Shown here piece by piece: positions 42,110 to 61,779 of a DNA stretch of 64,000 bases. The stretch's first letter is position 1. The number at the start of each line of letters is the position of its first letter. This stretch comes from Solirubrobacterales bacterium (GTDB lineage Bacteria > Actinomycetota > Thermoleophilia > Solirubrobacterales > 70-9), in the NCBI GenBank assembly GCA_035264245.1, contig DATFQO010000049.1:1731-65730 (forward strand), given 5' to 3'. The position numbers and the translations under genes were made by a program. The notes below the pieces were generated by a model. That model worked only from the letters and a program-made list of their open reading frames with translations, was not told the origin of the DNA and made no database searches.

Positions 42110-42172
42110 TTCATTCACGGTGACAAGAAAAGGTGACCCGAATCGAGCCAAGATTGGCCCGAAGCAGCCAGC

Positions 42173-42730: not shown

Positions 42731-42977
42731 TCATCTGTCTATAAAGAACCATGCACACTTTCGATCTAGATCGCTCCGAGGCCGAATCGAGCTTCCGCTG
42801 CCGGCTTGATTCGCGGCCCTGCGCCACTTGCCGCTCGCCGCGCGGCTACCTCGTCCGCCCCGGCCGCCACGCCTTCCGGCTCCACGCACCGACACAGCTG
42901 GAAACCGAGATTCCACTCCCGCTGCCTTCCACTTCAGGGTTCGCCGGGCAGCCTGAGTGCTGACAGCGTCTGGTGAC

Positions 42978-44009
42978 TTACGCAGCGCTCCTGCTTCGCC
43001 ACATTTTCATGAAGTAGAAGCCGCTTATCAGCACGGCAGCCGCCCACAGGAGGGTCAGCCATACACCCGGCAGCCCAGACCGCCCCTCATCCGGAGATGC
43101 GACTTCCCCATTCAGGATCGCCACCGGTTGATTGGCGTTGGCCGCGAGGGCCTGAAGTTCGAGCTTGAACTCTCCGGTCTTCTTGCCGACGACGCGGAAT
43201 ATGCCGCTCCTCCTTCCAGTCAGGTCACCGAACCAAATCGTTCGTCGACCGACGATCCGGAATTCGTCCCCTGGTATCAATATCTCGACCCCAACCCCGT
43301 GCGCCGGGGCGTCGCCGATGTTCTCGAGATCGAAGCCGACCTCGAACTCCTGGCCGACTCTGGGCACCTGCTCCGGCTCGTCAGGCTCCAGCGCAAGTTG
43401 CGCGCGATAGGTATCGCTTACCTCGAGGCCCGAGCTCGGCAAAACGACGGCTCGATCGAGCTTGATACCGCCGATCTTCTGCAGCACGAACTGCAACCGC
43501 GTCCTCCCCGGCTTGACTCCGCAAAAGGGAAGGTAATTGGAGAACTTCAGACGCTGGGTCCGATCCTTCACCCTTCGACTGCGGATGCCGTGGATCAACT
43601 CCGTGGTGTTCCAGCTGATGATCGGAGTCCGTCCGGGTCGCCGCCGGACATGCACGTTCATCTGCGCACTGGGGCATCCGTTCGTGATGCCGCTGATAAC
43701 CGCCACCCCACTACCGCTGAATCGGCTCACCTCCAAGAGCAGGTTCATATGGATGAGATAGGACAATGATCGGGGGGACGGCTGCCGCGGCTGACTGGCG
43801 GCCGGCGGGAAGGCCACCGGAACCGATCGTCGCCCGACCTTCCCCTCCACCGGCAGGCGAAGCCCGGTCGCACCGAGCTCCGGGAGCGTCCAGCTGCCCT
43901 GCCCGTGCAGTACGACCGGGCTGTCTTGCTCACCAGCCGCGGCTGGGGCAGCCGCCAGCGAGCCGGCAACCGCCACGGCAACCGCCAAAGCCAAACCAGC
44001 AGGCTTCAC
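42978..44009 (-). CDS. membrane-anchored surface protein with CARDB-like domain
   Basis: Signal peptide MKPAGLALAVAVAVAGSLAAAPAAA. CARDB-like segment VGQEFEVGFDLENIGDAPAHGVGVEILIP. C-terminal TM WLTLLWAAAVLISGFYF plus basic tail. Last gene of the giant-protein operon. Confidence 0.6.
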   Translation of the reverse strand: MKPAGLALAVAVAVAGSLAAAPAAAGEQDSPVVLHGQGSWTLPELGATGLRLPVEGKVGRRSVPVAFPPAASQPRQPSPRSLSYLIHMNLLLEVSRFSGSGVAVISGITNGCPSAQMNVHVRRRPGRTPIISWNTTELIHGIRSRRVKDRTQRLKFSNYLPFCGVKPGRTRLQFVLQKIGGIKLDRAVVLPSSGLEVSDTYRAQLALEPDEPEQVPRVGQEFEVGFDLENIGDAPAHGVGVEILIPGDEFRIVGRRTIWFGDLTGRRSGIFRVVGKKTGEFKLELQALAANANQPVAILNGEVASPDEGRSGLPGVWLTLLWAAAVLISGFYFMKMWRSRSAA

Positions 44010-44037
44010 CGAGGGTTCGTCGCCCTAGGGTCGGGCA

Positions 44038-45669
44038 TCACGGGTTGTACGTGTACCCAAGTGACATCTCCGTCGTCTGACCTTCGCAATTAGATTGGGC
44101 GGAGACGAAATGTCCGCCCGGATACCAGCAGCGGTAGATCTGAAGCGTGGGGACCCCGGGAGGGGGAGAATCGTAGGCGTACCCCTCTAGCGCGAGGTAC
44201 TCCTGCCCCTCGCAATTACGATTAAGACTGATGAAGTGATCTCGGGCGCTGGCGTTGTGCCTGCACGAATAAAGCGGGTGGCGATTCGCCGCATAACCCT
44301 GAACCAGCTGCCCCATGAAGCCCTCGAGGGTGGCCCCGGCTGGACCTCGGCCAGTCGTCACATGATGGTCGACTCCTCCGCCGAGGTATCGTCGGAGTGG
44401 GCCGGAGCCCTTCAGGTATCCCAGGGACCCCCGGATCGGATAGCTTTCGCACGTCGTGCTCTCGAAGATCTCATTGCCTATCCGGCAGCTTTTCAACGGA
44501 GTGGAAGCGGCCACGCTCTGCGACGTGTAAATGTAACCTACGATCCCATCATTGTCACCAGGGTCGCAACTCACGTCCCGAGAGAGGAAGTGTTCAGTTG
44601 CGTTCTCCTCACATTCGTAAAGTGGTGCGGTCCCGGGTACGAGACTCGTCTCAAGGAATCCGAGCGTCCCCTCGACGACGTCGTAGGTGGAATCAGCTTT
44701 TCCCGTGGTGACCCAGTGGTCCCCACTCCCCCCTCCTTCGTGGTAGTTGTAGTAGCGCGTCAACGCCGCGGAGGGATAGGGGTTGAATGGTTCCCCAGGA
44801 GGGACGGTGCTGGCGCTGGCAGCTGCATTGAGGACGATCCGACTCGCCCTACCGTCGCTCAGCCAGATGTGATTACCATCCGTACGGCCCGTCAATCCGG
44901 TGCCCTCAACGGGGAACCCATCTCCAACCTCACGATTTGCCATCCACACCTTGTCAGAGTAGACGGCCCTGACTCCTGAAGATAGCTGGCGGGCCTTTGC
45001 TACAACCCAGTTCTCGACCCTCTCGCTGTTGCCGAACCATTGGAACCCGTGGTTGTAGTGGAAAGTGTGGCCGGCTACCGTCCACTGACACTCATTGTGG
45101 TCCTCGTGCGAGGTCGCAAATACGTAGTAGGTCCACTGCGGCGAATACATTGAGTCTGCGCGTGCTCCGCGATAGTCGAGGGGCTCTCGTGGAGCATAGA
45201 TACGGATATGGTGGGTTCCTTTGTTTGGGCCTGTCCCAATATGAAGGTCATCCTTGGCGCTGCACCCGTAATCCTTCATTCCCTTGTCGGTGTCGCAGAA
45301 CCCATGGGTGCTGTCGGACGCACAGCCGGTCATCGGGCTACGCGACTGCTTCCAAATGAAATCCGGGATCGGCTCGTCGTTCGTCTGGGAAATGTGGTGC
45401 GGAAAGAACGGGCTGAAAACGCTGTTGACGATCGGAACCGATGCTCCGTTCGTGAAGAAGAGATTGACAGGCCAATCGTATTCCTTGATCTCCCCATCTT
45501 CGAGCTTGTAATCGTAGTTGAGGATTCTGTCCTCTCGAATCGGCTGGTAGCCCGGGAAATTGTTAGGCGTTGCCGCAGTTACCTGGCGCAACCCAACAGC
45601 AACCGGCAGGCTCGCCACCAGCACGAACAAGACGACACCGACCAGAGTGAGTCTTGCGTTCTGGCTCAT
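44038..45669 (-). CDS. secreted protein: His-rich N-terminal domain of unknown fold plus five Cys-containing DUF5648-like repeats
   Basis: ATG at 45669 overlaps the upstream stop (TGATG). Signal/anchor LTLVGVVLFVLVASLPVAVG. C-terminal repeats of type PLY.C......DHF.S....CEG......GY.Y. Confidence 0.65.
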   Translation of the reverse strand: MSQNARLTLVGVVLFVLVASLPVAVGLRQVTAATPNNFPGYQPIREDRILNYDYKLEDGEIKEYDWPVNLFFTNGASVPIVNSVFSPFFPHHISQTNDEPIPDFIWKQSRSPMTGCASDSTHGFCDTDKGMKDYGCSAKDDLHIGTGPNKGTHHIRIYAPREPLDYRGARADSMYSPQWTYYVFATSHEDHNECQWTVAGHTFHYNHGFQWFGNSERVENWVVAKARQLSSGVRAVYSDKVWMANREVGDGFPVEGTGLTGRTDGNHIWLSDGRASRIVLNAAASASTVPPGEPFNPYPSAALTRYYNYHEGGGSGDHWVTTGKADSTYDVVEGTLGFLETSLVPGTAPLYECEENATEHFLSRDVSCDPGDNDGIVGYIYTSQSVAASTPLKSCRIGNEIFESTTCESYPIRGSLGYLKGSGPLRRYLGGGVDHHVTTGRGPAGATLEGFMGQLVQGYAANRHPLYSCRHNASARDHFISLNRNCEGQEYLALEGYAYDSPPPGVPTLQIYRCWYPGGHFVSAQSNCEGQTTEMSLGYTYNP

Positions 45670-48600
45670 CAGTATTCCCATCCATTCGGGTCGATTTCGA
45701 ATCCTTCGAGGGTTTCGGGGCTATAAGTGACTTCGCCGGCTTCGTCGGCGACCGGTTCGATCATCACTACTTCGCCGCCGACAAGATTGCCGTTAACGTC
45801 GGTTTCCGCATCCAGCTGCACGATCAGGGTCGTCACCTCGGTGGCCGCAGCTTTCATTTCTGCTTCCAGGTACGTGCCCTCCGCGTAGTAGCTCGGATCC
45901 TCCAAGTCATAGCCAATCACGGGCCATACCCTGTCCTCCCAGTCATGGGGGGTGACCATCGCCACCGTTGCGGTGACACCCACTAGGTTGGTCGTTTGAG
46001 TGGCCGTCGTCTCCGTCCAGGGCCCAACGGTCATCGCGTAGTTGTCACCCTGGATCGCCGACTGGAAGGCTGGGTCGGCCGCGATCAGCGTCTGCGCTTC
46101 TTCAACCTGTTCTTCGGTCAGTGTGGGCGCTGGATCGGTGAGCTCCAAGGCCGGCTCTCCGCTCTCCGGCGTGGCCGAAATGTCCGGCGTGCTGAGCGCC
46201 AAGTCGGTCTGCGTGCCGGAATCGAAGCTCGTGCCGACGGCCGCGCAGTCCGCTGCCGCTGGACATGAAATCGCACTCAGCTTGCTGTTAGGGGTGCTGA
46301 TGCCGTTAGCTCGGTTAGGGGTCGGCTCCACGTACCAGCCTGTTCCGTTCCAGCTCATCGCCAGCGTGTGGAAACCAGAAGCTTCTTTCGCTTGGTAATG
46401 CCCCACCGCCACACACCGGCCCTGGCCGAAGCAGGAAACATCGCTGAGGTAGGTGGCCGTTGCGTTTTCAGGAGCTGGGATGGCCAATTGGTTCCAGCTG
46501 GTTCCGTTCCAACTCACCGACAACGGGTAGGAAGACACCCCGATCGTGTATTGACCGACCGCTTTGCAGCTGGTGTTGGACTGACAGTCCACCCCCATCA
46601 CTTCGGTCCCGGCACTCGCCGGCGCATCCGCTACCGTCACCACGGACCAGACAGTCCCGTTCCATCGCTCGCCCAGTGGCCGCTTTACCCCGCTGGCGTC
46701 CTTGTAGGTGCCGACCGCCATACAGCTGTTCGAGGCCGGACAGGACACGTCTTCCAACCAGGCCTGGGTCGCACCGGCCGGAAGTGGGGCAGTCTGCGTG
46801 GACCACGACGTGCCATTCCAGACCTCGATCAGGACTACGGCTTTGGAGGCGCTCGTGTATCTGCCTACAGCTACGCAGCTGTTGCTCGACGGGCATGACA
46901 GCCCAGCGAGAGAATGCGCACTTCCCGTGGGGTTCGGCGTGGGCAGTACGGACCACTGGATCCCATCCCAACGCTCTGCCAACGTGCCCGCGGCCTGAGA
47001 TCCGACGGCAGTGCAGGAGCTCAGGCTCGCGCATGCGACGTCGAGGAGCGAGCCTTCCCGAACACCGGGCATCGCCTGTGCCGTCCAGCCGGAGTCTTCG
47101 AGCTGCCACGCCACCTCCGTTCGATCCGCTAGGCCGGATTCGATCCTGCCCACGGCCATGCAGCCCGCCTGAAGGCAGGTGATTCCTGCAAGGCCTGACA
47201 TCTCCCCTCGGTTGTCAAGCTCGGCGCCCCAGATCTGAACCAGGGCTCGTTTCTGGACTTTTTCGTCGCTGAAGTTGCCCACCGCCAAACAGGGCGAGGT
47301 GGAGCCCCCGTAGGTTCCGCAAGAGACGCCCTGCGGACTCGCCCCGCTGAATGGGTACGGTTCCTCGACCGTGCTATTGGCCCACGCCGTCCCGTTCCAC
47401 GCCTGAATCAGCTCCGTGAGCGGGATGCCAGACACCTGGGACACGCCGACTGCCACGCAGGACGTGGATGACGTGCAGGTGACGTCCCTCAGTTCACTTC
47501 CGTATCCGCTGAGACCGTTCGGAGTGCCTACGGTCGTCCACACCGTCCCGTTCCAGATCACTCCGCGCGTTTTTCGTTCCGTGCTGATCGTGTCGTAGCC
47601 GACTGCGGCGCACCAAGTCGTAGACGTACAGGCGACACCTGTGAGGGCGCTTCCTTTCGATTCGCTGTTGATCGGAATAGCCACCGCCGACCAGGAAGTC
47701 CCATTCCATTTCATCGCGAGGTTCTTGGCGGTGGATTCCGTATAGGTGCCAGTCGCCATACAGAAGTTTGTTGCGGTACAGGAGACGGCTTGGAGTTCGC
47801 TGGGAACCGTGCTACCGCCAGGGGCCGGAGTCGCCACAACGGACCACGCCGATCCATTCCAGCTCATCGCGAGGGTCTTTTTCACGCCGGAAAGGGTGTA
47901 ATCGCCGACCGCGGTGCAGGAAATGGCGGAGACACAAGCCACTCCCGTCAGCTCGCTTGCCGTCGCCCCTGCCGGCGAGGGCACTGAAGCGATGGACCAC
48001 GCCGTACCGTTCCATTCCATCGCCAGTGATTTCTTTACACCCGAAGAGGTGTAATTACCAACGGCCGTGCAGCCGGTCGCGCTTGAACAATGGACGTCCA
48101 CCAGCTCGGTTGCTGACGCACCGGCGGGTTTGGGGGTGCTGGCAATGGTCCAGTCGCCGGGGTACCCCGTTGCGGAAAACGGCCCAGCCGCCCCCGATAC
48201 GGTGGCCTTACCCACCGCCACGCAGCTCGCGGAAGCGAAGCAGAAGACATCACGCAGTTCGCCGCTGGATGCCCCGCTTGGTTCGGCTGAGGAATCGACA
48301 GCCCAGGTTGCGCCCGACCAATTCGCCACGATGACCCGGCGGGTCGCCCAGTTGTCGAGGTGATCGCCGATTGCCATGCAGCCAGTTCCCGAGAGACAGG
48401 CGATCGATCGCAGGCTCCATTCATCGGTTTTTGCAGGCTCGGGAGCCCGGCCCAGAGTCCAAGCTCCACCGGTGCCGTTGAGCACCAGTCCCTGACGGTG
48501 CCCGGCCTCGTCGGCGTACTCCCCTACCGCAACGCAGGCGGAGGGGGAGATGCAGTCGACCCCGAAGAGCTTCGTCCACCGCGATTCGCCCGGACTCGGC

Positions 48601-50561
48601 AACGAGATGGCGGACCAGGACGTCCCACCGCTCCAGCGGAGGTTGAGGCCATGAACGATGCCTGACGGGTCCCGGTAGCTGCCTACGGTCGAGCAGAAGG
48701 TGGGGCCAGCGCAGCTGATTCCGGTGAGGGCGGTACCCAGTGCACCAGTTGGCTCCGCCGGAAGCGAGGCGATCGACCACGCCGAGCCATTCCAATCGAG
48801 AGCCAGCTGATGGGTGGTGTTGCCGTCTTCGAAGATGCCAACCGCCTTGCAAAGGGCGGTGCTCGTGCAGGACACGTCTTGTAGCGATACACCGACGGCG
48901 CCGCTCACGGTGGGAGTCGACGCGATCGACCATGCGGTGCCGTTCCAGCTCATCGCCAAGGCGCGCTTTTCCCCTCCCGAATCGACATAGCGCCCAACCG
49001 CCGCACAGGAACCGGTGACGCACGAGACCCCGGACAGATGGCTGGCCAGCGAACCGCTCGGAGCGGGAGTCGTCCCGCTGGACCAGGCGGTTCCATTCCA
49101 GGTGACGCTGAGAGAACGTTCGCTTCCGGTCGAATCGAGGTAGACACCGACCGCGACGCAGTCGGAGGTGCTGCGGCAAGCCACACCCTCGAGGGCGGTC
49201 GATTTGGCACCAGCGGGAAAGGGGACATATTGCGCAGCCCAGGTAAATCCGGTCCAGCGCTGTATGAAAGCCCGTTCCACGTCCCTGCCGCGCTGGTAGG
49301 TGCCGACCCGAATGCACCACGAGAGTGAGGCGCAGGCAAGTCCCATCCTTTCGGCAGCACCGCTCTGCCCCGGAGACTGGTCCGACCAGGTCCGCTCGTA
49401 GCCGCCTGCTTCGGTCAGAGCCCACCCCGTCCCGTCGTATCTGAGGGCGAGGTTGCGATTGGCGGCGACATGGCCGTAAACAATTGACCCGCTGGCGTGA
49501 CAGAACGTTTGCGTTAAACATGCGACAGCGGTCAAATCGCTCCCGACCGCACCGACGCTCGAGATGTCCACGGACTGCAGGCTCCAGGAGGTTCCATTCC
49601 ACCACAGCGCATGCGGAAGATCGTCCTGCCCTTTGTGGAAGGTACCTACCGCGGAGCAGACCGAGGCAGAGCTGCAGGAGATTGCTTTGAGCTGGCTGCT
49701 GGTCCCGGACGGCTCCGGCGCCGACATGATCGTCCAAGTGCTGCCGAGCCACTGCACCGCGAAAGACTTCTGGATTCCGACGGAATCGAAATAGCTACCT
49801 ACTGCCTTGCAGTTGTTGGTAAGGCACGAGACTCCGGACAGGGACCCGAAGGTCGCGCCACTGGGTATCGGGATTGAGCTGGTTGACCAGGAGGTGCCGT
49901 TCCACGAGAGTGCCAGTGGTTTCGTTACCCCCGTTGAATCGGCGTAGTTCCCAACCGCAAAGCATGAGGTCGCACTGGAGCAGGAAATCGAGCTCAGATC
50001 GTTCGATTTGGAACCGCCGATGTTCGGCGAGGAGGCGACGCTCCATGAGCCTCCGTTGAAACTGATTGCGAGCGTCTGTCGAGCATTGGACGAGTTCACG
50101 TACGTCCCAACCGCCTTACAGGCCGAAGCGGAGGTACAAGCGAGGTCCGTAAGCCAGCTTGCCTTCGTACCGCTGGGCTCGGAAACAGTGGAGACCGTCC
50201 ATGCGGAGCCGTTCCATGCCATAGCCAGAGCGTGTTTCACGTTCATGCCATCGGTAGCGCTCCCAACCGCGAAGCAGGTGCTTGCCCCGGGGCAAGCAAC
50301 GCCCGAGAGAGAGCTGAGGCTGGCCCCGTCCGGCACCGGAGTGGTCTGCCTGGCCCACACCGTGCCATTCCACGCTGCGGCCTGCACCTGACTCGTCCCG
50401 ATCACATCGGAGCCTCCCACGGCAATGCAACTACTTGACGACGGGCAGGCCATATCCGCGAAATCACTCGTGGCGGATGCGGCGGCGGGTGCGAAGAGCA
50501 GCAACAGACCCAGGACCAACGCCAGTCGAGCAGTCCAGACCGTCTTTTGACCTGGGTTCAT
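45669..50561 (-). CDS. giant secreted repeat protein (1630 aa, about 27 repeats of ~48 aa)
   Basis: ATG at 50561 gives MNPGQKTVWTARLALVLGLLLLFAPAAASA. Repeat consensus L.gVSC.S...C.AVG.Y......k.LA..WNGT.WS....P.P.G. Non-repetitive acidic ~170-aa C-terminal domain. Confidence 0.85.
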   Translation of the reverse strand: MNPGQKTVWTARLALVLGLLLLFAPAAASATSDFADMACPSSSSCIAVGGSDVIGTSQVQAAAWNGTVWARQTTPVPDGASLSSLSGVACPGASTCFAVGSATDGMNVKHALAMAWNGSAWTVSTVSEPSGTKASWLTDLACTSASACKAVGTYVNSSNARQTLAISFNGGSWSVASSPNIGGSKSNDLSSISCSSATSCFAVGNYADSTGVTKPLALSWNGTSWSTSSIPIPSGATFGSLSGVSCLTNNCKAVGSYFDSVGIQKSFAVQWLGSTWTIMSAPEPSGTSSQLKAISCSSASVCSAVGTFHKGQDDLPHALWWNGTSWSLQSVDISSVGAVGSDLTAVACLTQTFCHASGSIVYGHVAANRNLALRYDGTGWALTEAGGYERTWSDQSPGQSGAAERMGLACASLSWCIRVGTYQRGRDVERAFIQRWTGFTWAAQYVPFPAGAKSTALEGVACRSTSDCVAVGVYLDSTGSERSLSVTWNGTAWSSGTTPAPSGSLASHLSGVSCVTGSCAAVGRYVDSGGEKRALAMSWNGTAWSIASTPTVSGAVGVSLQDVSCTSTALCKAVGIFEDGNTTHQLALDWNGSAWSIASLPAEPTGALGTALTGISCAGPTFCSTVGSYRDPSGIVHGLNLRWSGGTSWSAISLPSPGESRWTKLFGVDCISPSACVAVGEYADEAGHRQGLVLNGTGGAWTLGRAPEPAKTDEWSLRSIACLSGTGCMAIGDHLDNWATRRVIVANWSGATWAVDSSAEPSGASSGELRDVFCFASASCVAVGKATVSGAAGPFSATGYPGDWTIASTPKPAGASATELVDVHCSSATGCTAVGNYTSSGVKKSLAMEWNGTAWSIASVPSPAGATASELTGVACVSAISCTAVGDYTLSGVKKTLAMSWNGSAWSVVATPAPGGSTVPSELQAVSCTATNFCMATGTYTESTAKNLAMKWNGTSWSAVAIPINSESKGSALTGVACTSTTWCAAVGYDTISTERKTRGVIWNGTVWTTVGTPNGLSGYGSELRDVTCTSSTSCVAVGVSQVSGIPLTELIQAWNGTAWANSTVEEPYPFSGASPQGVSCGTYGGSTSPCLAVGNFSDEKVQKRALVQIWGAELDNRGEMSGLAGITCLQAGCMAVGRIESGLADRTEVAWQLEDSGWTAQAMPGVREGSLLDVACASLSSCTAVGSQAAGTLAERWDGIQWSVLPTPNPTGSAHSLAGLSCPSSNSCVAVGRYTSASKAVVLIEVWNGTSWSTQTAPLPAGATQAWLEDVSCPASNSCMAVGTYKDASGVKRPLGERWNGTVWSVVTVADAPASAGTEVMGVDCQSNTSCKAVGQYTIGVSSYPLSVSWNGTSWNQLAIPAPENATATYLSDVSCFGQGRCVAVGHYQAKEASGFHTLAMSWNGTGWYVEPTPNRANGISTPNSKLSAISCPAAADCAAVGTSFDSGTQTDLALSTPDISATPESGEPALELTDPAPTLTEEQVEEAQTLIAADPAFQSAIQGDNYAMTVGPWTETTATQTTNLVGVTATVAMVTPHDWEDRVWPVIGYDLEDPSYYAEGTYLEAEMKAAATEVTTLIVQLDAETDVNGNLVGGEVVMIEPVADEAGEVTYSPETLEGFEIDPNGWEY

Positions 50562-50827
50562 CTCAGCACCAGACGTCGCATCATGACCCTCCGAAATGCA
50601 CACTTGCAACTCATTGGCGAAGCCCCCCTGCGAACCAGACGCATTTGCATCGTTGGCGAGATTGATAGACAAACACATGTTCTTGTGAAGGAAGGAACAT
50701 GGTTTTAGTTACGGGATCTATACCACAAATCTAGATCCAGCTCTAACTCGGGTCCGATCACCGCCAAGCAGGGAAGGGTCGACTTGGCTCACACGCTACG
50801 GCGGCCCACGGAAACCGTGATCTATCC

Positions 50828-50856
50828 TTGACAAAACCTTTGACTAGGACTAGGTT
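50828..50856 (+). promoter_or_regulatory. near-consensus sigma-70-type promoter TTGACA-N17-TAGGTT
   Basis: TTGACA 50828-50833, 17-nt spacer, TAGGTT 50851-50856. No protein gene lies downstream on this strand, only the leader-like segment and the terminator. Confidence 0.45.
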
Positions 50857-50861
50857 GTCTT

Positions 50862-51030
50862 GGCAGCTGCTTCGGGGAGGACTGGCCGATGGCGAGCCCC
50901 CGGCGTGTCCGGACAACGGTTTCCCTGCCGCTCCGGGTTTAGGGCTGCACCCCACCCCGGCTACCTCGCCTTCCCTGTCGAGGTGAGCCCGTAAAACGAC
51001 TCCCGGTTCCCCGCCGGGGGTCGTTTTATG
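50862..51030 (+). ncRNA. candidate ~165-nt orphan transcript homologous to the TetR gene leader (sRNA or deletion scar)
   Basis: Lies between the 50828 promoter and the 50993-51027 terminator. Four colinear blocks are shared with 61780-61917 (see findings). Only a 3-codon ORF (GTG AGC CCG TAA, 50983-50994) sits where the TetR start aligns. Confidence 0.3.
50993..51027. terminator. bidirectional intrinsic terminator
   Basis: AAAACGACTCCCGG / loop TTCCCCG / CCGGGGGTCGTTTT: a 14-bp stem (one G-U) with an A-run on one side and a T-run on the other. It lies 11 nt past the stop of the 51038 gene on the minus strand and is also correctly oriented for the plus strand. Confidence 0.75.
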
Positions 51031-51037
51031 GGGGCTC

Positions 51038-51823
51038 CTATCCGCGCGCGCGGCAGCTGCGGATCAAGGTGGAGCTGAGGGTCTTGCCACCGTCGAAGCC
51101 GAAGCTCGTCCGCGCAAGGGGGAAGACGGCGCTCGAAAAGCCGGCGGGGGCAGGACAGCCGGCGAGGAGGTAGCTGCGGCTGCGGCCGCCGGCGCGGAAG
51201 CTGCGACCCAGGGTGAGCTGGATGCCGGTGACGAAGCCGGCCTGGCCGGTGACTTGCGGCAGCGAGGCGCTCAACGTGGTCGCAAAGGTGCCCTTGGCGT
51301 GGCCGATGAACAGGGGCAGCGTGTAGGAGGTGGGAACGGGGTCGGTGCCGTAGACGTGGGCAAAGATCACCGGGCGGCCGCCTTCGACGCCGTTGAAGGC
51401 GATCACCTTGCCGCGCGAGGGGAAGGGAGCCTGGCCGGGGATCGCGACGTTGGCGGAGAAGCGGCCTTCCCCCACCTTCGCGCCGCGGCAGGCCGCCAAC
51501 GCCTTCTGGGTCGTGGAGGGCTGGATCTGTTCGAGCCTGCAGGCGGGGAGGCCCTGGCGGTCGATGCGGCCCTCGCGGTTGATCGCGATCTCGATGCGAC
51601 GAAGCTGCGGCGGTTCGGAGCCGTCGGCGGTGGTGATCCTGCCGCCGATGCGGACGGTGACCGGGCGGGTGCCCTGGCGGGGCAGCTCGTGGGGAGTCAG
51701 CTGGCCGTCGAACTTCACCCGCAGACCACCCTGTTGGGCGGTCTCCGCCTCAGAGGCCGCGGCGAAGGCGGCGAGCCCCGCAAAGGCGACAAGGCCCGCG
51801 AGCTTGAGCGAGCGCAGCCTCAT
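51038..51823 (-). CDS. secreted protein C1 (single Cys-pair module, unknown family)
   Basis: ATG at 51823 forms an ATGA overlap with the B1 stop. Signal peptide MRLRSLKLAGLVAFAGLAAFAAASEA. Clear paralogue of 63225-63998. Confidence 0.75.
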   Translation of the reverse strand: MRLRSLKLAGLVAFAGLAAFAAASEAETAQQGGLRVKFDGQLTPHELPRQGTRPVTVRIGGRITTADGSEPPQLRRIEIAINREGRIDRQGLPACRLEQIQPSTTQKALAACRGAKVGEGRFSANVAIPGQAPFPSRGKVIAFNGVEGGRPVIFAHVYGTDPVPTSYTLPLFIGHAKGTFATTLSASLPQVTGQAGFVTGIQLTLGRSFRAGGRSRSYLLAGCPAPAGFSSAVFPLARTSFGFDGGKTLSSTLIRSCRARG

Positions 51824-54729
51824 CGCCGCCCGCGCTTTCGCTTGTGCTGCTTGTGCTTGGCGCATTTGACGGCGATCGGCGGCGCCGATATCGCGGTGGA
51901 GTTGTCGTGGGCGATGAAGCGGGCGCTGGCCAGTTGCGGGGCGGAGCAGAGGTTCTCGGAGTTGACGAGCAGGCCGTGCTTACCGCCGGCGAGGTTCATG
52001 GTGAACTTCGTGACGGGGGCATCAGGCAGGAGTTCGAAGGTTCCGCGCAGGCCGCCCCCCCGCGCCCTGTCGATCCGGCCCACGACTTCGACCTCGAAGC
52101 CCTGGCCGGAGAGATAGGCGACCACGTCAGGTAACAGGTTGGTCGAGGAGCGCAGGTAGACGGGGCCGCTGAGCGGTTCGGCGAGCAGTGGAGTGAGAGC
52201 TCTGGCGTAGCCGATTCGCGAGTTGGCTGGACAGGTCTTGGCCCGGAAGCGTGGCATCGTGCAGACCTGGCCGATGTGCTCCTGGGCCAAGAAGACCGAG
52301 TTCGGCAGGCTGACTGCAACTGACTTCAGGTTGGGGTCGCCGGGGCGGGGCGTGTAGGTGGCTTTCAGGGCCGGGTAGCGCCCCCGCTTCGTGCCACCCT
52401 TCAGCTTCAGGTGCAGCCTCGGCTTGAAGATGAACCCGGAGCAGTCGCTGAGCTGGAAGCGATCGCTGCTGGTAGTGGCGGGGTCGTCGGCAGGGCTGTA
52501 GAGATCCAGGCCGGCGCCGGTCAGGGTCGAGATGGTCGTGAGCGGGTCGCAGTTGGTCGGGTTGAGCGTGAAGTCGGGGCGATCGACGTCGACGCGGATA
52601 TCGCGCAGGTGGATCGGGATGCCCCTGATGATGTGGGGGATCGGATCTGAGCCGGCGGAGTCGATCGAGGCTTGCGCGCTGCGGGGGTCGATGCGGATCG
52701 CCGAGCGCACCACGACCACTCCGAGGTCGAAGGGACCGACAACGGCCGAGTCGATCGCAACCGTGGAGAGTTGGGCGCCGTGGTAGGGGCCGGCGAGGTA
52801 GAGGGCACCGGGGGCATATGCGAGGGTCCCCCCCACTCCGTAGCCGGCGAGGGTGGTGCCGATTCGGCTGGAGGCGGGGCAGCTGGGCCCCGCCAGCTCT
52901 TCGGCGCCGCCGTGGATTCCGGTGCGGGCCCGGGCGGCGGCGATCGCGGAGTCGGGGCAGACCCCGACCCCGGCCAGCTTCGCCAGGAGGCCCGGTGGGA
53001 AGGTGGCCGAGTAGGAGGTGATCTCCTGCTCGGCGTCGGTGCGGGTCATGCGCAGCTCGAAGGGCGAGTAGAAGCCGGCGGTGGGATTGAGCGAGCCTGC
53101 CTCCAGGCCCGGGTGGAAAGGCGGCAGGCCCGGGGGCGGGCACTCGCCGCCGTCGGCGCCGCGGTTGATCGGGAAGCTGGAGAAGCTCTCGAGGCGAAGG
53201 CCCGGGTCTGACCAGGGCCAGTAGTGCAACTGGGCGATGTGGGCGCCGCAGGTCGGTGGGGAGACCATCGCCGCGCGCTGGCCTTCGCGCAGGTTCAAGG
53301 TGAAGAGGTCGTAGTGGATCGGGGGCAGGTCTTCGAAGCTGACCACCAAGCGCCCGGTGGCGGGGTCGGGCTCGGCCTTGCCAAAGGACTTGAAGTAGAG
53401 ACCGCGGCGCGGCGAGGAGAGGGTGATGTAGAGCGCTATCAGGTTCTTGGCGGGGTTGGCGAAGGGGGTGGCGAGGAAGACCGAGCCTTTGAGGACTGCG
53501 GGAAGGCCTAGCAAGCCGTTGACAGAGACGGTGCCGATCTTCGAGTTGTTGGGGCAACCCGAACCCGGGAGCGAGGTGGCGCTCTCACGGACGAACTCGG
53601 CTTCGGAGCAGGTTCCGAGACCGGCGCCGAGGGACGGGTTGATGCTGAGCCCTTCGGGCAGGAGGGCGCTGACCCGTTGGATCGGCGAGCGGACCCGGCC
53701 GTTGACGTTGAGAAAGCCACCGCCGTCGTTGACGTTCAGCTCGAAGGCGATGCCGGTGGCCGCGGCGGCGCGATCGGTGAGCAGACGCAGCCTCGGGATC
53801 GCCAACACCTCGATGCAGTCGCTGACGGTGAGCGGGTCACCGCCGCTATCGCGGGAGAGGACGTTCCTGTGCTCCGCGCCGCCCTGCCAAGAGCTGACCG
53901 CCGCGCCCCATTGCAGCTGCCCGCCGCAGGTGGTGGGCAGGGTCAGGTAGGAATGGATGTGGTCGAGCGAAAGCGAGATGAAACAGGTGCCCGCGTGGAA
54001 TTCCGGGTCAGTGCTTGGATAGCGCCGCTCGATCCCGTCTTTCCAGTAGGAGGCCTCACCGTTGAAGTCGGCCGGGCTCACCTCGTTGAGGCAGTTGCCG
54101 CGTTCGACGTCGTATTTGTATTCCCACGGGGTGCCCCAGAGGGTGAGGTCGAGCGACTGGATGTTCAGCGCCTGAGTGAGGTTCTTGAGCTCGAAGTCGA
54201 GGGTGGCTTGGTCGCTGCGGTAGCGCCCGGCGAGGATCACCGGCACCCCGAAGGGGGCGAAGCCGATCGCCTCGGCGCTGCCGAAGGGTGCGGCGAGGTT
54301 GAAGAGGCCGAAGTGGCGGGTCGTGCCGCCGGCGCCGCCGGTGTGGACGGCGACGACGCCGATCTGGCTGGAGCCGGGACAGCTCTCCCCGGAGAGGCTC
54401 GCTTCGTAGGGAGAAGAGCGCCGGGTGACGAACTCACCGGCGGAGCACTCGTCGAGGGCGGCAGGGTTGGCGATCACACCGGCGGGGAGGGTAAGCCGGA
54501 GGTCGCGCAGGTCACCGTCGCTGTAATCGCCGGCCGTGTTGAGGGCAAGGTGGACCTGAAGCAGGTCAGGATGGGTGCCGGCGCCGCTCACCGGCGCGCC
54601 TTCACGCTCGATCGCGACGTCGAAGCCTTCAGGGCCTGGGAGCAGGCCAAAATCGGCGCTGGCGCTGGCCGGGGCGATAACCACCAGGCCCAGCGCGGCC
54701 AGGGCCAGCCACAGCGCCGGGTGCCTCAT
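51820..54729 (-). CDS. large secreted protein B1 (four Cys-pair modules, polybasic C-terminal tail, unknown family)
   Basis: ATG at 54729 forms an ATGA overlap with the A1 stop. Signal peptide MRHPALWLALAALGLVVIAPASASA. Paralogue of B2. Tail KCAKHKQHKRKRGRR. Confidence 0.8.
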   Translation of the reverse strand: MRHPALWLALAALGLVVIAPASASADFGLLPGPEGFDVAIEREGAPVSGAGTHPDLLQVHLALNTAGDYSDGDLRDLRLTLPAGVIANPAALDECSAGEFVTRRSSPYEASLSGESCPGSSQIGVVAVHTGGAGGTTRHFGLFNLAAPFGSAEAIGFAPFGVPVILAGRYRSDQATLDFELKNLTQALNIQSLDLTLWGTPWEYKYDVERGNCLNEVSPADFNGEASYWKDGIERRYPSTDPEFHAGTCFISLSLDHIHSYLTLPTTCGGQLQWGAAVSSWQGGAEHRNVLSRDSGGDPLTVSDCIEVLAIPRLRLLTDRAAAATGIAFELNVNDGGGFLNVNGRVRSPIQRVSALLPEGLSINPSLGAGLGTCSEAEFVRESATSLPGSGCPNNSKIGTVSVNGLLGLPAVLKGSVFLATPFANPAKNLIALYITLSSPRRGLYFKSFGKAEPDPATGRLVVSFEDLPPIHYDLFTLNLREGQRAAMVSPPTCGAHIAQLHYWPWSDPGLRLESFSSFPINRGADGGECPPPGLPPFHPGLEAGSLNPTAGFYSPFELRMTRTDAEQEITSYSATFPPGLLAKLAGVGVCPDSAIAAARARTGIHGGAEELAGPSCPASSRIGTTLAGYGVGGTLAYAPGALYLAGPYHGAQLSTVAIDSAVVGPFDLGVVVVRSAIRIDPRSAQASIDSAGSDPIPHIIRGIPIHLRDIRVDVDRPDFTLNPTNCDPLTTISTLTGAGLDLYSPADDPATTSSDRFQLSDCSGFIFKPRLHLKLKGGTKRGRYPALKATYTPRPGDPNLKSVAVSLPNSVFLAQEHIGQVCTMPRFRAKTCPANSRIGYARALTPLLAEPLSGPVYLRSSTNLLPDVVAYLSGQGFEVEVVGRIDRARGGGLRGTFELLPDAPVTKFTMNLAGGKHGLLVNSENLCSAPQLASARFIAHDNSTAISAPPIAVKCAKHKQHKRKRGRR

Positions 54730-56327
54730 CGCCCCGCCTTCGCGCGTTCGGAGCGCCCGCCCTCGTGCCGGTGGTGGGCACGGTGGTGGCGGCGCTTGCA
54801 CCCCTTGTGCTTGCGCCTCTGCTTGTGTGGCTTGCAGTTGCGAGGGAAGCTGACCGCGCGATTGCCGAGCCCCGGCAGCGAGGCGGTGGGCGGAGGTTCA
54901 TAGTCGGGCACCGGTGAGGGGCCCTGGCAGTCATCGCCGAAGCAGACCTGGGCTTCGGGTTCGGGGAAGCCACCGCCGACGCGGGCGTCATAGAGGTCGA
55001 GGGCGGCGTCGGGGTCCCGGGGCAGCAGCGGGGCACTGGTGACGAAGTAGGCATCGTCGCCCGAGGCACTGGCGCCGGCGAAGGCAGCGCCGCCGAGGCG
55101 CCCGTCAGAGATCAGAGCGAGGCAGCCGCCCGCCTGCACGCAGGTGCCCCGGCCCCCCGCCTCCCACTCATAGACGTCGGCGCTGCCGTCGGTGTCGTGG
55201 AAGAGGAGCGCGGCGGGCGAGGTGAAGAAGAAGCGGGCGCCGTCGGCGCTGGCCTGGGCACGTCCGCTCGCCGGCGGGAGGGTCGAAGGCCCAGTGGCGA
55301 GGAGCCGGGTTGAGGCACCGGCGGCAAAGCGGTGCAGGCCGTTGCTGGTGACGTAGTAGATGACGCCACCGTCGTCAGAGAGGCCGATGACGGCGAGTGC
55401 CCCGCCTGCGGAGGTGAGGTCGCTGAGGGCTTCGCTCGTCGCCTGGTAGCGGTACAGGTGTTCGCCCTGGATGAAGTAGGCCCGGGAACCGTCTCGAGAG
55501 GCAGTCTGGAAAGAGGCACCGGCGGCAACCAGGCGGCTGCCGCCGCCTTCGCGCAGGTGCAGGTTGCCGGCGAGGGTCCAGTAGACGCGCGAGCCGTCGG
55601 CGGAGACGGCGCCGGGCCCGCTGGCGAGGGCGGCGCCGGGGTCGGAGCTGATGACTTCGACGAAGCCCTCGCTCCACTCATAGAGGCTGCCCTCGGCGGA
55701 GAAGACGACGTGGTGCAGGTCGGGGCTGGCGCCTTCGAAGGCGAGCTGGAAGTCCTGAGGTTCGCTCGGCAGACTCGGAAAGGTGCTGGTGACGAGCGGC
55801 GTGAAGGTGTCGGCCTCCCGCAGGTAGAGGTTGCGGTAGCCCGGCGGAGCCCCAGGGGCCAGCGGTGGGTTCTCCACCGCGCAGGAGCCAGAGCCGTCGC
55901 GACAGCGCCAGCCGTTGTTGAGGATCGCGCTGCCGAGGTCGGCGGAGAAGAGCTCGTAGGCACCGGCGCTGTAGGTGCCGGAGAGGGCGGAGGGGGTCAC
56001 GTTCTCGCTGCTCCAGCCGGCGGCGCCGCGGGTGGCGAGGTACTGGTTGACCGGCAGTGAGCCGACCGCCTCGCCGAAGGAGGCGGGCGAGCCAAAGGCA
56101 ACTGCTCCGTCCTGCACGCCGGCCTGCAGGACGCCTGTGAAGAAGCTACCCGGCGGCCCGACCACGCCGCCGTTCTTCTCGACCGGGGAGACCAGCTCGA
56201 AGGCGCGGGAATCGAGCCCGCCGGGCGGCCCCGCCGCCGTGGCTGGGCCGGCGAGGGCGAGCAAGGCGGCGGCGCAAAGCGCCGCCGCGATTCCCGCCGC
56301 GCGGGGGTGCCGAGAGCCCGCGCTCAC
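54726..56327 (-). CDS. secreted PD40/TolB-like beta-propeller protein A1 with Cys-containing polybasic tail
   Basis: GTG at 56327 forms a GTGA overlap with the B2 stop. Signal peptide. PD40-like strands (VSADGSRVYWT, ASRDGSRAYF, ASADGARFFFTS, DVYEW). C-terminal LDLYDARVGGGFPEP..C.GDDCQG plus tail. Confidence 0.8.
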   Translation of the reverse strand: MSAGSRHPRAAGIAAALCAAALLALAGPATAAGPPGGLDSRAFELVSPVEKNGGVVGPPGSFFTGVLQAGVQDGAVAFGSPASFGEAVGSLPVNQYLATRGAAGWSSENVTPSALSGTYSAGAYELFSADLGSAILNNGWRCRDGSGSCAVENPPLAPGAPPGYRNLYLREADTFTPLVTSTFPSLPSEPQDFQLAFEGASPDLHHVVFSAEGSLYEWSEGFVEVISSDPGAALASGPGAVSADGSRVYWTLAGNLHLREGGGSRLVAAGASFQTASRDGSRAYFIQGEHLYRYQATSEALSDLTSAGGALAVIGLSDDGGVIYYVTSNGLHRFAAGASTRLLATGPSTLPPASGRAQASADGARFFFTSPAALLFHDTDGSADVYEWEAGGRGTCVQAGGCLALISDGRLGGAAFAGASASGDDAYFVTSAPLLPRDPDAALDLYDARVGGGFPEPEAQVCFGDDCQGPSPVPDYEPPPTASLPGLGNRAVSFPRNCKPHKQRRKHKGCKRRHHRAHHRHEGGRSERAKAGR

Positions 56328-59300
56328 CGCTCCGTGGCGCGCTTGCCCTTGCGGCCCTTACCGCAATCGGCCTTGAGCGCCGGCCTGCTGTCGCCGATCC
56401 TGCCGTTTTGGCCGTCGAACTCGGCGATCGCCCTGTGGGTCGCCGCACAGAGGTCGGCGCTGTTTTCCAACAGGCCCTTCTTGCCACCCTGCATCGAGAG
56501 CACGAACTTCGTGACCGGGGCGTCGGGGACGTCTTCGAACGTGGTGCGGATGCCGCCGTCCATGGAGTCGATCCGACCCACCAGGTTGACGTCGATCTGC
56601 CCGTGCAGGGCAGCCACCAGGTCCGGTAGCGAGTTATCGGAGGAGCGCAGGTAGACCGGGCCGGCAAGCGGGTAATCGAGCAGCGGGCTGGTGGCCCTCG
56701 CCCTGCCGTAGATCGACCGCTTGGGGCAGCCGCCGCCGTTGCCGCCGCCGGCGGCAAACTGGACCCGGGTACAGATGGTGCGGATGTGGCCCTGGGCCAA
56801 GAACTCCGAGTGCGGCAGGGCGACCGAGGCGCGCTCGACATTGGCACCGCCCAGGGGCATCGTCAGGGTCGCCCGCAGCGCCGGGTGCTTGCTGCGGGTC
56901 GTCCCGCCCTCGAGCGCCAGGGTTAGCTTGGGCTTGAAGGCCAGGGCGCCGCAGTCAGAGGCCTGGAAGCGATCGGAGACGTTGGCTACGTCGCCATTGC
57001 TGGCTTCGATGGCGGCCCTGACCGCTTGCGGTTCGCAGCTGGTCGGGTTGAGGGTGAAGCCGGGCCGATCGACCAGCACTCGCAGGTCGCGGTAGGAGAC
57101 CGGGATGCCGCCATAGATCTGGGGCAGCGGGTCCGAGAGGACCGTGGCCTGGGTGGTGGTGGGATTGATCTGGAGGGCCGAGCGCACCGCAACCGTGCCG
57201 AGGTCGAAGGGACCGGCCTGGGCGGGTACCGAGGCGATGACGCTGTAGGGGGCGGATTTGTAGGGGCCGGCCAGGTAGACGGCGCTGGGGGCCTTCCCCG
57301 GTTGGGGCAGGAAGAGCGGTAGGGAGCCCTCGCCGATACCGGTCTGCACGCTGCCGATGCGGCTGGCAGCCGGACAGGCCAGGGCTGCCGCCTCGGCATC
57401 GGAGCAGACGCCGACGCCGGCGAGCTTTGCCAGCTCGCCCTCGGGCAGGGTGGCGTCGATGCGGGAGATGTTGGGTTGGCCGGAGTCGCGGGTGACCCGC
57501 AGGAGGAGGGGCGAGAAGGCGCCCGCCTTGGAATCGGTGACGCCCGCCCGGAAGCCGGGCGCGAAGCCAGGTGCATTGCAGCCCTGGTCGACGCTGATGC
57601 CGGGTGCGAGCTTGACCGTCTTGCCGTTCCAGCCGGTCAGGGTTGCTTGGGCGGCGTAGGTGCCGCAGGCCTGCGGCGTCGTCAGCGGCGCCCGCGGACC
57701 GGTCTTCAGTTGCATATGCATCGATTCGAAGGGCAGCTGCGGCAGGTCTTCGAACGTGGTCGTCAGCTGGCCGGTCGTCTTGTTCACCACCAGCGAGCCG
57801 GGCAGTTTCACGTCAACTCCGCGCTCGGCCGAATGCAGGACGATCGCGAGCCGGTACATCTGGCCCGATTCGGGGTCCTGCGAGTTCTGGGTCCGCAGGT
57901 AAACCGAGCCGCCGATCGCTTCGGCGAGCAGCGGCGTGTCGACTTCAACGGAGCCGAGTCTCGAGGCTTCGGGGCACTCCGCAGGCCCCTCGCGCCCAAT
58001 CCGCAGTTGCGCGTCAGTGCAAGTGGCGAGCCCGTCCGCGGCCGCGGGGTTGAGGGAGATGCCCCGGGGCATCTCCAGGGAGACGCTTTTCACGTCGGCA
58101 GTGGCGATTCCGTCAGGCCCACTTCCCTGGGGCAAGGTCAGGTCGACTGCAAGACCACTCGCGCTGTGGGCGGAGCCGTCGGTCGGAGCCAGACTTACGT
58201 GGGGTTCGAAGGGAACACTGTCGCATCCAGTGGTCGCCGGCGTGGTGGCGGATCTCCTATGGAGGATATCCGGGTGCAGGTAAGTATCCATTTCCATCTC
58301 CCACCGCAGCGGTTCGCCGGAGCATGAGGTCGGAAGCCGTAACAACGGAGACTTCGAAGCACTGGAAAGTAGGCACCTTTCGCCGCTGGCGCCAGAAAGA
58401 CCCCGAATGCATTGAGGCCGAAGGTCGTCATGGAAGCTGTCGGCGGGGGTGCCCCAGAAAACGGTCTGGATGCTCGTCAGCTGGTCAGCAGTGGCTGCCC
58501 GGACCGTATAGAGATCCACTCCGTAGTCAGAGGGGCGCAATTTGGCCGGAATGATGACGGGCACTCCCTGGTAGTAGAGCCCAAACTCTGCCGGGACCCC
58601 CGCGGAAGGCACCAAGTTGTACATCGGCGTCAGATCCTTACCATTGAGCAGAGCGTAGCCCACCTGACTGTCATCGGGGCAACTCGGTACCTGATTGTTT
58701 TTGGCGTCAGGGTCGTGATTGGAAAACGACAATTGCCCAGCCGTACACCGCGAGCCGGTGGCCGTGGGATCTCCGACGAATCCAACCGGTAGGTGCGTCG
58801 ACAGGTTGCGGAAGCTCTCAGGCGTTGCAATGAAGGTGAAAGCTGGTTCGAGATCCAGCGGCGTTGCGGCATGGCCATAGAACGAGGCCCTAGCGGACAC
58901 TTCGCGTGGATGGGACCCCGCCTGTGCGGTGGGCAGTTTAGGATTGTCGGCGATCGCCATTTCGAAGGCCTTGAACTGGAAGGGGCCAACAGGACCGGTA
59001 TCGAAGCTGAGCGGATAGGTGGCCGGGTTGGATGCTCCGCCGCCGGTAACCTGGACCTCAGCGTTGAGCGTGCTTTCGGCTCCGGCTTCGACAAACGTAA
59101 GGAGCTTGAAGGTCATCAGGTGATGGGGGGCCATGACGCTGGCGTCAGCGGTGCATTCGACTTCCTGAGCGGATGACGTGCAGACGGTGTTTTCCGGCAA
59201 TGCTTCGGAATCGGCGAACGATGAGGCGAGTCCCTCATCAAACGTGTATCGAAGGGTGAGGGTGCCGCTCATCGCTTCATCGCCTTCATTGTGGATGGCG

Positions 59301-59482: not shown

Positions 59483-59541
59483 GGAAGGGTCTCCTTGGTC
59501 CAAAGTCGAGAAGCCGGTAGTCAGCGCCTGCTCACGACCCC

Positions 59542-61605: not shown

Positions 61606-61726
61606 CTCTCTCTCCTTGTGTCTCGAGGGCCCCCTGGTGGCCCTTTTCCCTTAGGGCGGCGGCTACCCGAGCCGCCTCCCTTCTCCTGCCATCGCCCGAA
61701 CACCGGCCGTATGGAAAAGCAGCGGT

Positions 61727-61756: not shown

Positions 61757-61779
61757 GGATGAGTTCTGGTTTCCCGGAA

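Follow-up and report, generated by a model that had tools for sequence, protein, structure and literature searches.

Gene organization of the locus

The window, by which we mean the whole stretch of 64,000 nucleotides analysed here, comes from an uncultured member of the Solirubrobacterales, an order that is abundant in soil. The 275-aa C protein that it encodes matches, at 100% identity, a hypothetical protein from a metagenome-assembled genome of the Solirubrobacterales, and among the more than 2000 homologues of this protein, all of those with a source name belong to the same order. The C gene belongs to an operon on the minus strand whose large products lack Pfam domains. A spacer (IGR1), which sits in a low-GC stretch of the window and contains the candidate RNA element described here, separates it from the gene of a large repeat protein, while a second spacer (IGR2) lies between the operon and a divergent double TetR gene (Table 1). 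An earlier, sequence-only reading of the window had placed a C-family gene to the right of both the IGR1 element and the TetR gene, which is correct; both C-family genes are on the minus strand.

Table 1. Coordinates of the genes, spacers and predicted RNA features in the window
Feature	Coordinates	Strand	Remarks
1669-aa repeat protein gene	45669-50678	-	signal peptide suggests that the true start is 50561
IGR1			360-nt spacer between the 1669-aa gene and the C gene; contains the RNA element
Upstream element GGAAACC	50810-50816	+	11 nt 5' of the -35 box
-35 box TTGACA	50828-50833	+	invariant in 6/6 copies
-10 box TAGGTT (TAnnnT)	50851-50856	+	17-nt spacer to the -35 box
Predicted sRNA transcript	50863-51030	+	about 168 nt; start inferred about 7 nt after the -10 box, end at the T-run
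5' hairpin S1	50872-50903	+	GGGGAGG pairs with CCCCC in the MFE fold
Hairpin H2	50908-50937	+	apical loop UUCCCU (50921-50926); dG -13.6 kcal/mol
H3 position	50941-50958	+	weak 3-bp hairpin and unpaired C-rich run CACCCCACCCC (50948-50958)
Hairpin H4	50959-50989	+	apical loop UUCCCU (50971-50976); dG -14.9 kcal/mol
Terminal hairpin T2	50991-51029	+	17-18 bp, loop UUCCCCG (51007-51013), then UUUU; matched by a terminator scan on both strands
C gene (275 aa)	51038-51865	-	stop codon at 51038-51040
Operon of large proteins without Pfam domains	ends 61605	-	275 (C), 993, 533, 1096 and 687 aa
IGR2	61606-61907		302-nt spacer between the operon and the TetR gene
Operon promoter in IGR2	61727-61756	-	GGAAACC at 61768-61774
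Double TetR gene	61908-63218	+	divergent from the operon
Second C-family gene	63225-63998	-	

The plus strand of IGR1 carries a promoter and, beside the C gene, a terminator. Both had been described in the earlier reading and are present, the former as TTGACA, a 17-nt spacer and TAGGTT, the latter as a hairpin of 17-18 bp followed by TTTT. A simple promoter scanner did not list this promoter because TAGGTT shares three of six bases with TATAAT; it fits the form TAnnnT. Counting both strands, the 64-kb window has the pattern TTGACA-N16-19-TAnnnT at exactly two places, 50828-50856 (plus strand) and in IGR2 (minus strand); about 1 Mb of related loci has it 14 times, again with both strands counted. 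GGAAACC stands 11 nt upstream of both window promoters. The promoter in IGR2, GGAAACC-N11-TTGACA-N18-TAGGGT, faces the operon and not TetR, and it coincides with the block that is conserved in all four orthologous spacers (those of loci L076, L063, L004 and L011). Because the IGR2 copy faces the operon, the likeness between IGR1 and IGR2 is that of two promoters with one architecture on opposite strands.

Homologues of the IGR1 element

Comparison of IGR1 with 80 GTDB loci around C homologues using blastn and nhmmer produced no match. The same was true of the nearest C relatives (L081 to L090, 70-78% identity; blastn and nhmmer), in which homology ends at the C stop codon. The distribution of the element is thus patchy, since the closest relatives by C protein lack it directly after C.

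Homologues were reached by three routes. In a scan of about 1 Mb of related loci for perfect promoters, which yielded the 14 mentioned above, L004 has a promoter on the strand opposite C, 205 nt from the C stop codon, compared to 210 nt in the window; another scanned promoter, in L081 to L083, has the same TTGACAAAACC as the window. A pattern scan of metagenomes for the terminator loop gave 108 matches. Only two of these, L136 and L175, were relevant, and L175 proved to be a new, diverged copy. Finally, the contigs of four further homologues of the L081/L175 TetR led to L201 and L202/L203. Together with the window, there are six distinct copies (window, L202/L203, L201, L081, L175 and L004), all from Solirubrobacterales, several of them uncultured soil members; L202/L203 and L201 are metagenomic contigs, and all genome records retrieved are metagenome assemblies. 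The sequence-only reading had made conservation in relatives a test of its proposal, and the element is present in five other distinct Solirubrobacterales sequences.

The window copy aligns over its full length with L202/L203, to which positions 50814-51026 (plus strand) are 72.6% identical over 223 nt from promoter to terminator (blastn, E = 6e-30), and with L201 (69.8% over 169 nt; blastn, E = 3e-16). No direct nhmmer link was obtained between the window copy and L004. To connect the copies we used two covariance models. R1 was built from L081, L175 and L004 only, and its top match in the whole window, searched on both strands with filters off, was 50960-51031 on the plus strand (23.7 bits, E = 1.4e-3), followed by a next match of 15.2 bits. 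R1 also recovered L201 and L202, in each case exactly 3' of a gene for a 188-aa secreted protein. Conversely, R2, built from the window, L202 and L201, recovered L081 (26.1 bits, E = 3e-4) and L004 (20.7 bits, E = 5e-3), while 0.97 Mb of other related loci gave it no match at E<=0.1. The link of the window to the L081/L175/L004 subgroup consists of these covariance-model scores of 20-26 bits together with promoter and geometry. The -35 box and the end of the terminal hairpin are 202 nt apart in the window and 197-208 nt apart in the five relatives.

The surroundings of the copies differ. Gene order in L081, L175, L201 and L202 is TetR, a wHTH regulator, the 188-aa secreted protein gene and the RNA element. 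In L004 the element adjoins conjugation genes; in the window it lies in the low-GC stretch. Global alignment of L081 with L175 showed 49-54 of 60 positions identical within the element (83-90%), compared to about 25-40 of 60 (50-60%) in the adjacent 188-aa gene, whose products share 41% amino-acid identity, and about 20 of 60 (~33%) in the DNA upstream of the -35 box. The element is therefore conserved above its neighbouring DNA while holding no conserved ORF, as expected of a stand-alone sRNA gene.

Several apparent similarities were set aside. The spacer scored 23-27 against the 5' region of the ftsE gene that follows C in nine relatives, but a remnant of ftsE was rejected: tblastn with FtsE gave no match in the expected strand or frame, and the score was put down to GC-rich noise repeated across orthologues. 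The 11-mer GGTTCCCCGCC, common to the window terminator and a hairpin of L081, served as a lead only and is not counted as evidence, because the L081 hairpin is collinear with H4 rather than with the window terminator and similar hairpins occur in unrelated gut bacteria. The occurrence of GTCTTGGCAG at the start of the 188-aa gene of L199 was attributed to chance, the 10-mer being found six times in 1.14 Mb, mostly in coding DNA.

Promoter conservation and coding potential

The promoter is kept in the homologues. Each of the six copies has the ACC of the upstream element unchanged, 11 nt ahead of the -35 box, which itself does not vary, and the spacer between the -35 and -10 boxes is 16-17 nt throughout. 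In the -10 boxes of the homologues (TAGATT, TAGCTT, TAAGTT, TACGCT and TACGGT), T1, A2 and T6 are kept and the middle positions are variable. The window sequence GAAACCGTGATCTATCCTTGACAAAACC and the L175 sequence GAAACCATGATCTTTTTTTGACAAAACC are identical at 24 of 28 positions, as counted by eye, and the L175 promoter, GAGAAACCATGATCTTTTTTTGACAAAACC, is a few bases off that of the window. A stand-alone bacterial sRNA gene is expected to keep a promoter of its own in its homologues, and this is what we observed.

We considered whether the transcript could be the mRNA of a small protein, encoded either by a 17-codon ORF from ATG 50888 or by a 44-codon TTG ORF at 50860. Both ORFs are listed or readable, and the former, with GGAGG 7 nt before its start, is the sole ORF with a good ribosome-binding site. 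However, the ATG is replaced by ATC in L202 and by ATT in L201, and the alignment indels are 1, 2 and 4 nt long, so that no reading frame is kept. The ORFs of L004 also differ in length and frame. Taken together, these observations make a small-protein mRNA scarcely credible.

Predicted RNA structure

The predicted RNAs of the six copies are 163-174 nt long. The window RNA has a minimum free energy (MFE) of -85.7 kcal/mol, with a z-score of -2.7 relative to dinucleotide shuffles, compared to -0.9 for the opposite strand, and the z-scores of the six copies are -2.7, -5.7, -4.8, -3.7, -4.4 and -3.9. All six share one order of hairpins at nearly equal positions: a 5' hairpin, H2, H3, H4 and a terminal hairpin.

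The 5' hairpin, S1, holds the second and third blocks that the sequence-only reading had compared with the TetR leader; L202 and L201 retain its GGGAG/CUCCC helix, in which one pair is compensatory. The loops equivalent to that of H2 are AUUCCCUG in L202, UCCCC in L201, UCCCU in L004 and L081, and CCC (from UACCCUG) in L175. At the H3 position, the string GGGCUGCACCCCACCCCGGC is identical in L202, and L004, L081 and L175 have a hairpin, GUGGC-NNN-GCCAC, at the same place. In H4, CGCCUUCCCUG is common to the window, L202 and L004, while L201 has AUCCCUG and L081 and L175 have UUCCCCG; between L081 and L004 compensatory changes preserve the H4 helix. C-rich apical loops with three or four C each, mostly UUCCCU(G) or UUCCCCG, thus recur at equivalent hairpins, although individually the CCC-containing loops are weakly enriched over shuffles (P from 0.015 to 0.36).

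The terminal hairpin, T2, is more stable on the plus strand (-26.9 kcal/mol) than on the minus strand (-20.4 kcal/mol) because of G-U pairs, and three compensatory pairs in it separate the window and L202 from L201. A terminal hairpin, as an intrinsic terminator requires, is found in every copy, with a clear U-run only in the window and L202. In all six copies a convergent gene has its stop codon 8-20 nt from this hairpin; the gene is C in the window and L004 and the 188-aa protein gene elsewhere.

In the alignment of L081, L175 and L004, 96.8% of cells were paired, compared to 35-56% when the partners were slid, with four compensatory pairs among the three sequences. The alignment of the window, L202 and L201, also of three sequences, had 89.7% of cells paired and four compensatory pairs. 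The covariation statistics are thin, because the six distinct sequences fall into two triplets, a set size below what a formal covariation test requires. Related sequences can also beat shuffles without structure.

Comparison with the TetR leader

The sequence-only reading had taken the segment for an orphan, copied from the leader and first codons of the TetR gene (61780-61917). All strings quoted in support of this are present at their coordinates, including AGGACTAGGTTGTCTTGGCAGCT (50846-50868) and AAGACTTAATGGTCTTGGCAGCT (61780-61802), which are identical at 18 of 23 positions, and the GGGGAGG that follows this first block in both loci. The locally alignable part comprises the first 35 nt only, GACT..GTCTTGGCAGCT..GGGGAGG. 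The pairwise alignment that had been proposed as a test gave a divided answer: these 35 nt beat dinucleotide shuffles (0 of 1000), but they do not beat real sequence. Within the 64-kb window the block has a blastn E value of 1.2 and a better match in coding DNA at 19661-19683, and its local score is reached by 10 of 1402 real windows. The score of the full alignment of 149 nt with 138 nt is equalled or exceeded by 22 of 2752 real windows (maximum 25, compared to 20.5). Blocks 3 to 5 are colinear only with indels of about +24, -21 and -12 nt and represent short GC-rich words at inconsistent spacing. By an estimate from 4^12, about 2.7 exact 12-mers are expected by chance between the 360-nt spacer and the rest of the window.

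When IGR2 was aligned with the spacers of L076, L063, L004 and L011, the conserved parts were 61715-61775, a box at 61859-61878 and the TetR N-terminus. The block highlighted in the earlier reading has diverged in L076, and L004 and L011 have lost it by deletion. With filters off, R2, which includes the window copy, had no match in the 61.6-61.9 kb region, and tblastn found no TetR remnant in IGR1 on either strand. Among the true homologues of the RNA, the conserved parts of the 5' end are GCAGC, GGGAG and GGCC(G)AT, and the 12-mer common to the RNA and the TetR leader is specific to the window genome. The TetR leader (Table 1, IGR2) and the RNA therefore resemble each other in having GTCTTGGCAGCT and GGGGAGG in the same order, and differ in that the shared block is unconserved in the leader's orthologues and the leader has no covariance-model match. 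The real promoter likeness is with the minus-strand operon promoter of the TetR spacer rather than with the TetR leader.

Two related candidates were also rejected. The closest relatives have a co-directional TetR after C, and tblastn found no remnant of it here. The palindrome AAGAC-N6-GTCTT at 61780-95 could be read as a TetR operator, but this block is unconserved in the orthologous spacers.

The earlier reading further proposed that a leader-TetR-C unit had been duplicated and had then lost TetR at the IGR1 locus, leaving a partly decayed copy that might act as a decoy RNA. Relatives do carry a TetR between C and the RNA, so TetR is indeed missing by comparison, and C-family genes follow both spacers; the 35-nt block, with an exact 12-mer and then GGGGAGG in the same order, does exceed dinucleotide shuffles. 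However, the TetR beside the RNA in relatives is a different one, 30% identical to that of the window, and it lies on the opposite strand and convergent to the RNA, so that the RNA is not its leader. The match has E = 1.2 in the window, with 22 of 2752 real windows as good or better, and the RNA has full-length homologues of its own elsewhere that do not adjoin a TetR start. Because the block is unconserved in TetR leaders and a TetR remnant was not found, a duplication and its scar are unsupported. Given also that the TetR spacer has no covariance-model match, the similarity is at the level of real-sequence background, and we regard the orphan-leader interpretation as highly improbable and largely refuted. 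The other proposal of the same reading, that a plus-strand RNA of about 165 nt may be functional, fared well, with conservation from promoter to terminator in six copies, a structured RNA and no conserved ORF.

Comparison with known RNA families

A scan against Rfam 15, suggested in the sequence-only reading as a way to examine the region, returned no family at gathering score in the window, and in 50600-51200 (601 nt) and in L175 there was only noise at E<=10. ARAGORN detected neither a tRNA nor a tmRNA. A literature search produced no paper on small RNAs in the order Solirubrobacterales or the class Thermoleophilia.

The closest parallel is the 6C sRNA (B11), which we take to be Rfam RF01066. 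It is under 100 nt long. Like the RNA predicted here, 6C (Mycobacterium, Streptomyces and Corynebacterium) is a stand-alone small RNA of a high-GC Gram-positive phylum, the Actinomycetota, and the idea of several hairpins with C-bearing apical loops is similar. The present RNA is longer, at about 170 nt, with 4-5 hairpins, some of them additional to those of 6C; its loops, UUCCCUG and UUCCCCG, are shorter and differ in sequence, with three or four C each, whereas 6C has longer C runs; and it comes from the Thermoleophilia and from a different genomic context. The Rfam 6C model had no match at E<=10 in the locus region 50600-51200 or in L175, and because this test failed, the likeness is one of mode and not of family. 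The C-rich loops of 6C bind the G-rich ribosome-binding-site regions of many mRNAs without Hfq or ProQ (PMC6486639).

Two further types of sRNA share features with this RNA. RoxS/RsaE (Bacillus and Staphylococcus) are sRNAs with C-rich regions that are thought to target G-rich Shine-Dalgarno regions. They likewise present UCCC-type motifs unpaired in a hairpin-rich sRNA with an intrinsic terminator, but Rfam scans showed no sequence or model similarity, they belong to another phylum, and no redox or TCA-cycle link is known here. The RNA also resembles convergent sRNAs of the GadY type, which overlap a neighbouring mRNA at its 3' end, in that it is always convergent with a gene and has a terminal hairpin common to the 3' end of that gene, but the predicted overlap is the terminator hairpin only, the partner gene varies and the conserved loops lie outside the overlap.

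Interpretation of the element

These findings suggest that the plus strand of the window from 50814 to 51030 is a stand-alone gene for a structured sRNA of about 170 nt that belongs to an uncatalogued family and whose loops pair with G-rich mRNA. We consider this statement as a whole moderately probable. Its parts differ in strength: that the element is a conserved, structured non-coding RNA gene is very probable, and the RNA is probably regulatory, while pairing through C-rich loops is a tentative proposal drawn from analogy. In the proposed mechanism, a housekeeping-type promoter (ACC-N11-TTGACA-N16/17-TAnnnT) would direct transcription from a predicted start near 50863. The RNA would fold into the 5' hairpin, two hairpins with UUCCCU loops and a C-rich segment between them, and a strong terminal hairpin with a U-run, which would double as the terminator of the convergent gene and end transcription at about 51030. 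By analogy with the actinobacterial 6C sRNA, the RNA may then act in trans, its exposed UUCCCUG, UUCCCCG and CCCCACCCC loops pairing with G-rich stretches (AGGGAA or GGGG, for example) at or close to the ribosome-binding sites of its targets, and this pairing could change the translation or stability of the targeted mRNAs. UUCCCU is an imperfect anti-Shine-Dalgarno sequence for the AAGGAG-type sites of this DNA, and a 6-nt complement such as AGGGAA is too frequent in 64 kb to inform target prediction. The convergent gene would also require a terminal hairpin regardless of any RNA gene, which weakens the hairpin as evidence for one.

The main rival to action in trans is an effect in cis on the stability or processing of the convergent mRNA, in the manner of GadY and gadX or of a 3'-overlapping antisense RNA. 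The 3' end of the RNA would be complementary to that of the convergent mRNA, because the terminal hairpin is shared and the genes are always convergent. That the hairpin stays within 8-20 nt of the convergent stop codon in all six copies even though the partner differs, and that it scores as a terminator on both strands, would fit such a role. However, the overlap is the terminator hairpin alone, and the most distinctive conserved parts (H2, H4 and the C-rich loops) are outside any overlap. The partner gene, C or that of the 188-aa protein, is not conserved either. Bidirectional terminators between convergent genes are common, and a shared one needs no regulatory meaning. Overall, we consider action in cis unlikely.

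The locus could also be read as having no RNA gene at all, with the hairpin acting as the terminator of C, the DNA upstream of it as the promoter and 5' UTR of the minus-strand 1669-aa gene, and the plus-strand promoter as a chance occurrence or relic. The hairpin does lie 8 nt beyond the stop codon of C and serves the minus strand as well, the promoter of the 1669-aa gene must lie somewhere in 50562-50830, and the spacer is in a low-GC stretch. Yet the conservation with L202 and L201 runs from the plus-strand promoter (50814) to the hairpin in contigs whose neighbouring genes are all different and that lack a 1669-aa gene. Six genomes retain the -35 box, the TAnnnT -10 box and their spacing, the folding signal is specific to the plus strand, and the internal hairpins carry compensatory changes. 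We therefore find the absence of an RNA gene very unlikely.

If the element is an sRNA gene, as we favour, more specific roles can be envisaged. It might be a regulator specific to this lineage and reserved for the clusters of very large secreted proteins, lacking known domains and present in multiple copies (the 687/1096/533/993/C genes and the 188-aa protein), that fill Solirubrobacterales genomes. The RNA would be encoded at the 3' edge of such a cluster, under a promoter with the same architecture as that of the cluster operon, and could act on G-rich operon leaders or on the 3' ends of convergent mRNAs. We consider so dedicated a role quite unlikely. Similarly unlikely, the RNA gene may mark a place where acquired DNA repeatedly has its boundary or inserts; it lies next to a low-GC stretch in the window and beside conjugation genes in L004.

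Implications

The putative family is new; the kind of mechanism proposed for it is already known. A conserved sRNA with C-rich loops, if real, would extend regulation in the style of 6C and RoxS to a deep actinobacterial lineage. The element is a candidate family for Rfam and for genome annotation, and it may help to explore how the large, uncharacterised secreted-protein clusters that adjoin it are regulated.

Conserved elements of the TetR/operon spacer

The 302-nt spacer between the large secreted-protein operon and the divergent TetR gene carries the operon promoter, which is its most highly conserved part and is strongly conserved across the window and the orthologous spacers of four related or metagenomic contigs, L004, L011, L063, and L076. 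This promoter has the same architecture as that of the sRNA gene, and its TAGGGT is followed by the conserved ACCGCTGCTTTTCC. Two boxes in the spacer, TTTAGAAGTACCGGTGTACC and GCGGTACCCTAGCG, stand in an inverted relation (TAG..GTACCG) with a separation of ~130 nt, and are candidates for TetR operators or else for a long-range leader structure.

Many relatives carry a conserved promoter-leader region with the motif AATTCGCTAG(T/C)CT between C and ftsE. This region lies ~1-130 nt past the C stop codon in contigs L035, L044, L046, L047, L052, L053, L070, and L072. The TTCGCTAG of these ftsE leaders was also found 5' of the -10 box in the window's operon promoter, and may represent either an extended -10 region typical of the clade or a common regulator site.

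Features of the window (window positions)
Feature	Position	Strand	Details
Gene for 1669-aa protein	45669-50678	minus	dozens of WNG(T/S)xWS repeats; signal peptide
Perfect inverted repeat	50714-50738		GGATCTA-N11-TAGATCC; upstream of 1669-aa gene
Operon for 275-, 993-, 533-, 1096-, and 687-aa proteins	51038-61605	minus	
Box GCGGTACCCTAGCG	61722-61735		kept in 5/5 orthologous spacers
Promoter of large secreted-protein operon	61722-61774	minus	GGAAACC-N11-TTGACA-N18-TAGGGT
Box TTTAGAAGTACCGGTGTACC	61859-61878		kept in 5/5 orthologous spacers
C-family copy	63225-63998	minus	grouped with operon 51038-61605

Surroundings of the proposed sRNA gene

Within the divergent promoter region, the inverted repeat is a possible binding site for a regulator; GATCTAT occurs again at 50820-50826, immediately 5' of the sRNA -35 box. 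The 1669-aa repeat protein had no Pfam match. Around its gene, GC content is 0.56-0.66 across 42000-51000, compared with ~0.70 on both flanks, and this low-GC stretch may be acquired DNA whose end is at the sRNA gene.

In contig L004 (7128-12253), the genes that follow the sRNA gene encode an ArsR/MarR-type wHTH protein, a conjugative-transposon protein of the TcpC family, and a 1117-aa AAA_10-domain protein, which suggests that an integrated conjugative element adjoins the sRNA gene there. Contigs L081 (5431-7841), L175, and L199-L203 share a conserved module in which a double-TetR gene (~417-447 aa) is accompanied by an overlapping wHTH gene in antisense orientation (105-130 aa) and by a gene for a fast-evolving 188-191-aa secreted protein; downstream of the module in L199 and L200, the sRNA model had no match at E<=0.1.

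A terminator-loop pattern scan of metagenomes returned an identical hairpin, TCCCGGTTCCCCGCCGGGG then CTTTTTGTGTTATACTTTCATCAAC, in many human-gut contigs (L091, L095-L097, and ~40 other loci). It is probably the terminator of one abundant species beside a promoter, unconnected with the sRNA gene.

The large-protein operon and the C family

Pfam domains were absent from the five operon proteins except for one weak PD40 repeat. The 275-aa C family has >2000 homologues, with several paralogous copies in each Solirubrobacterales genome. The operon, together with the neighboring C-family copy, is a large, uncharacterized, multi-copy gene-cluster family.
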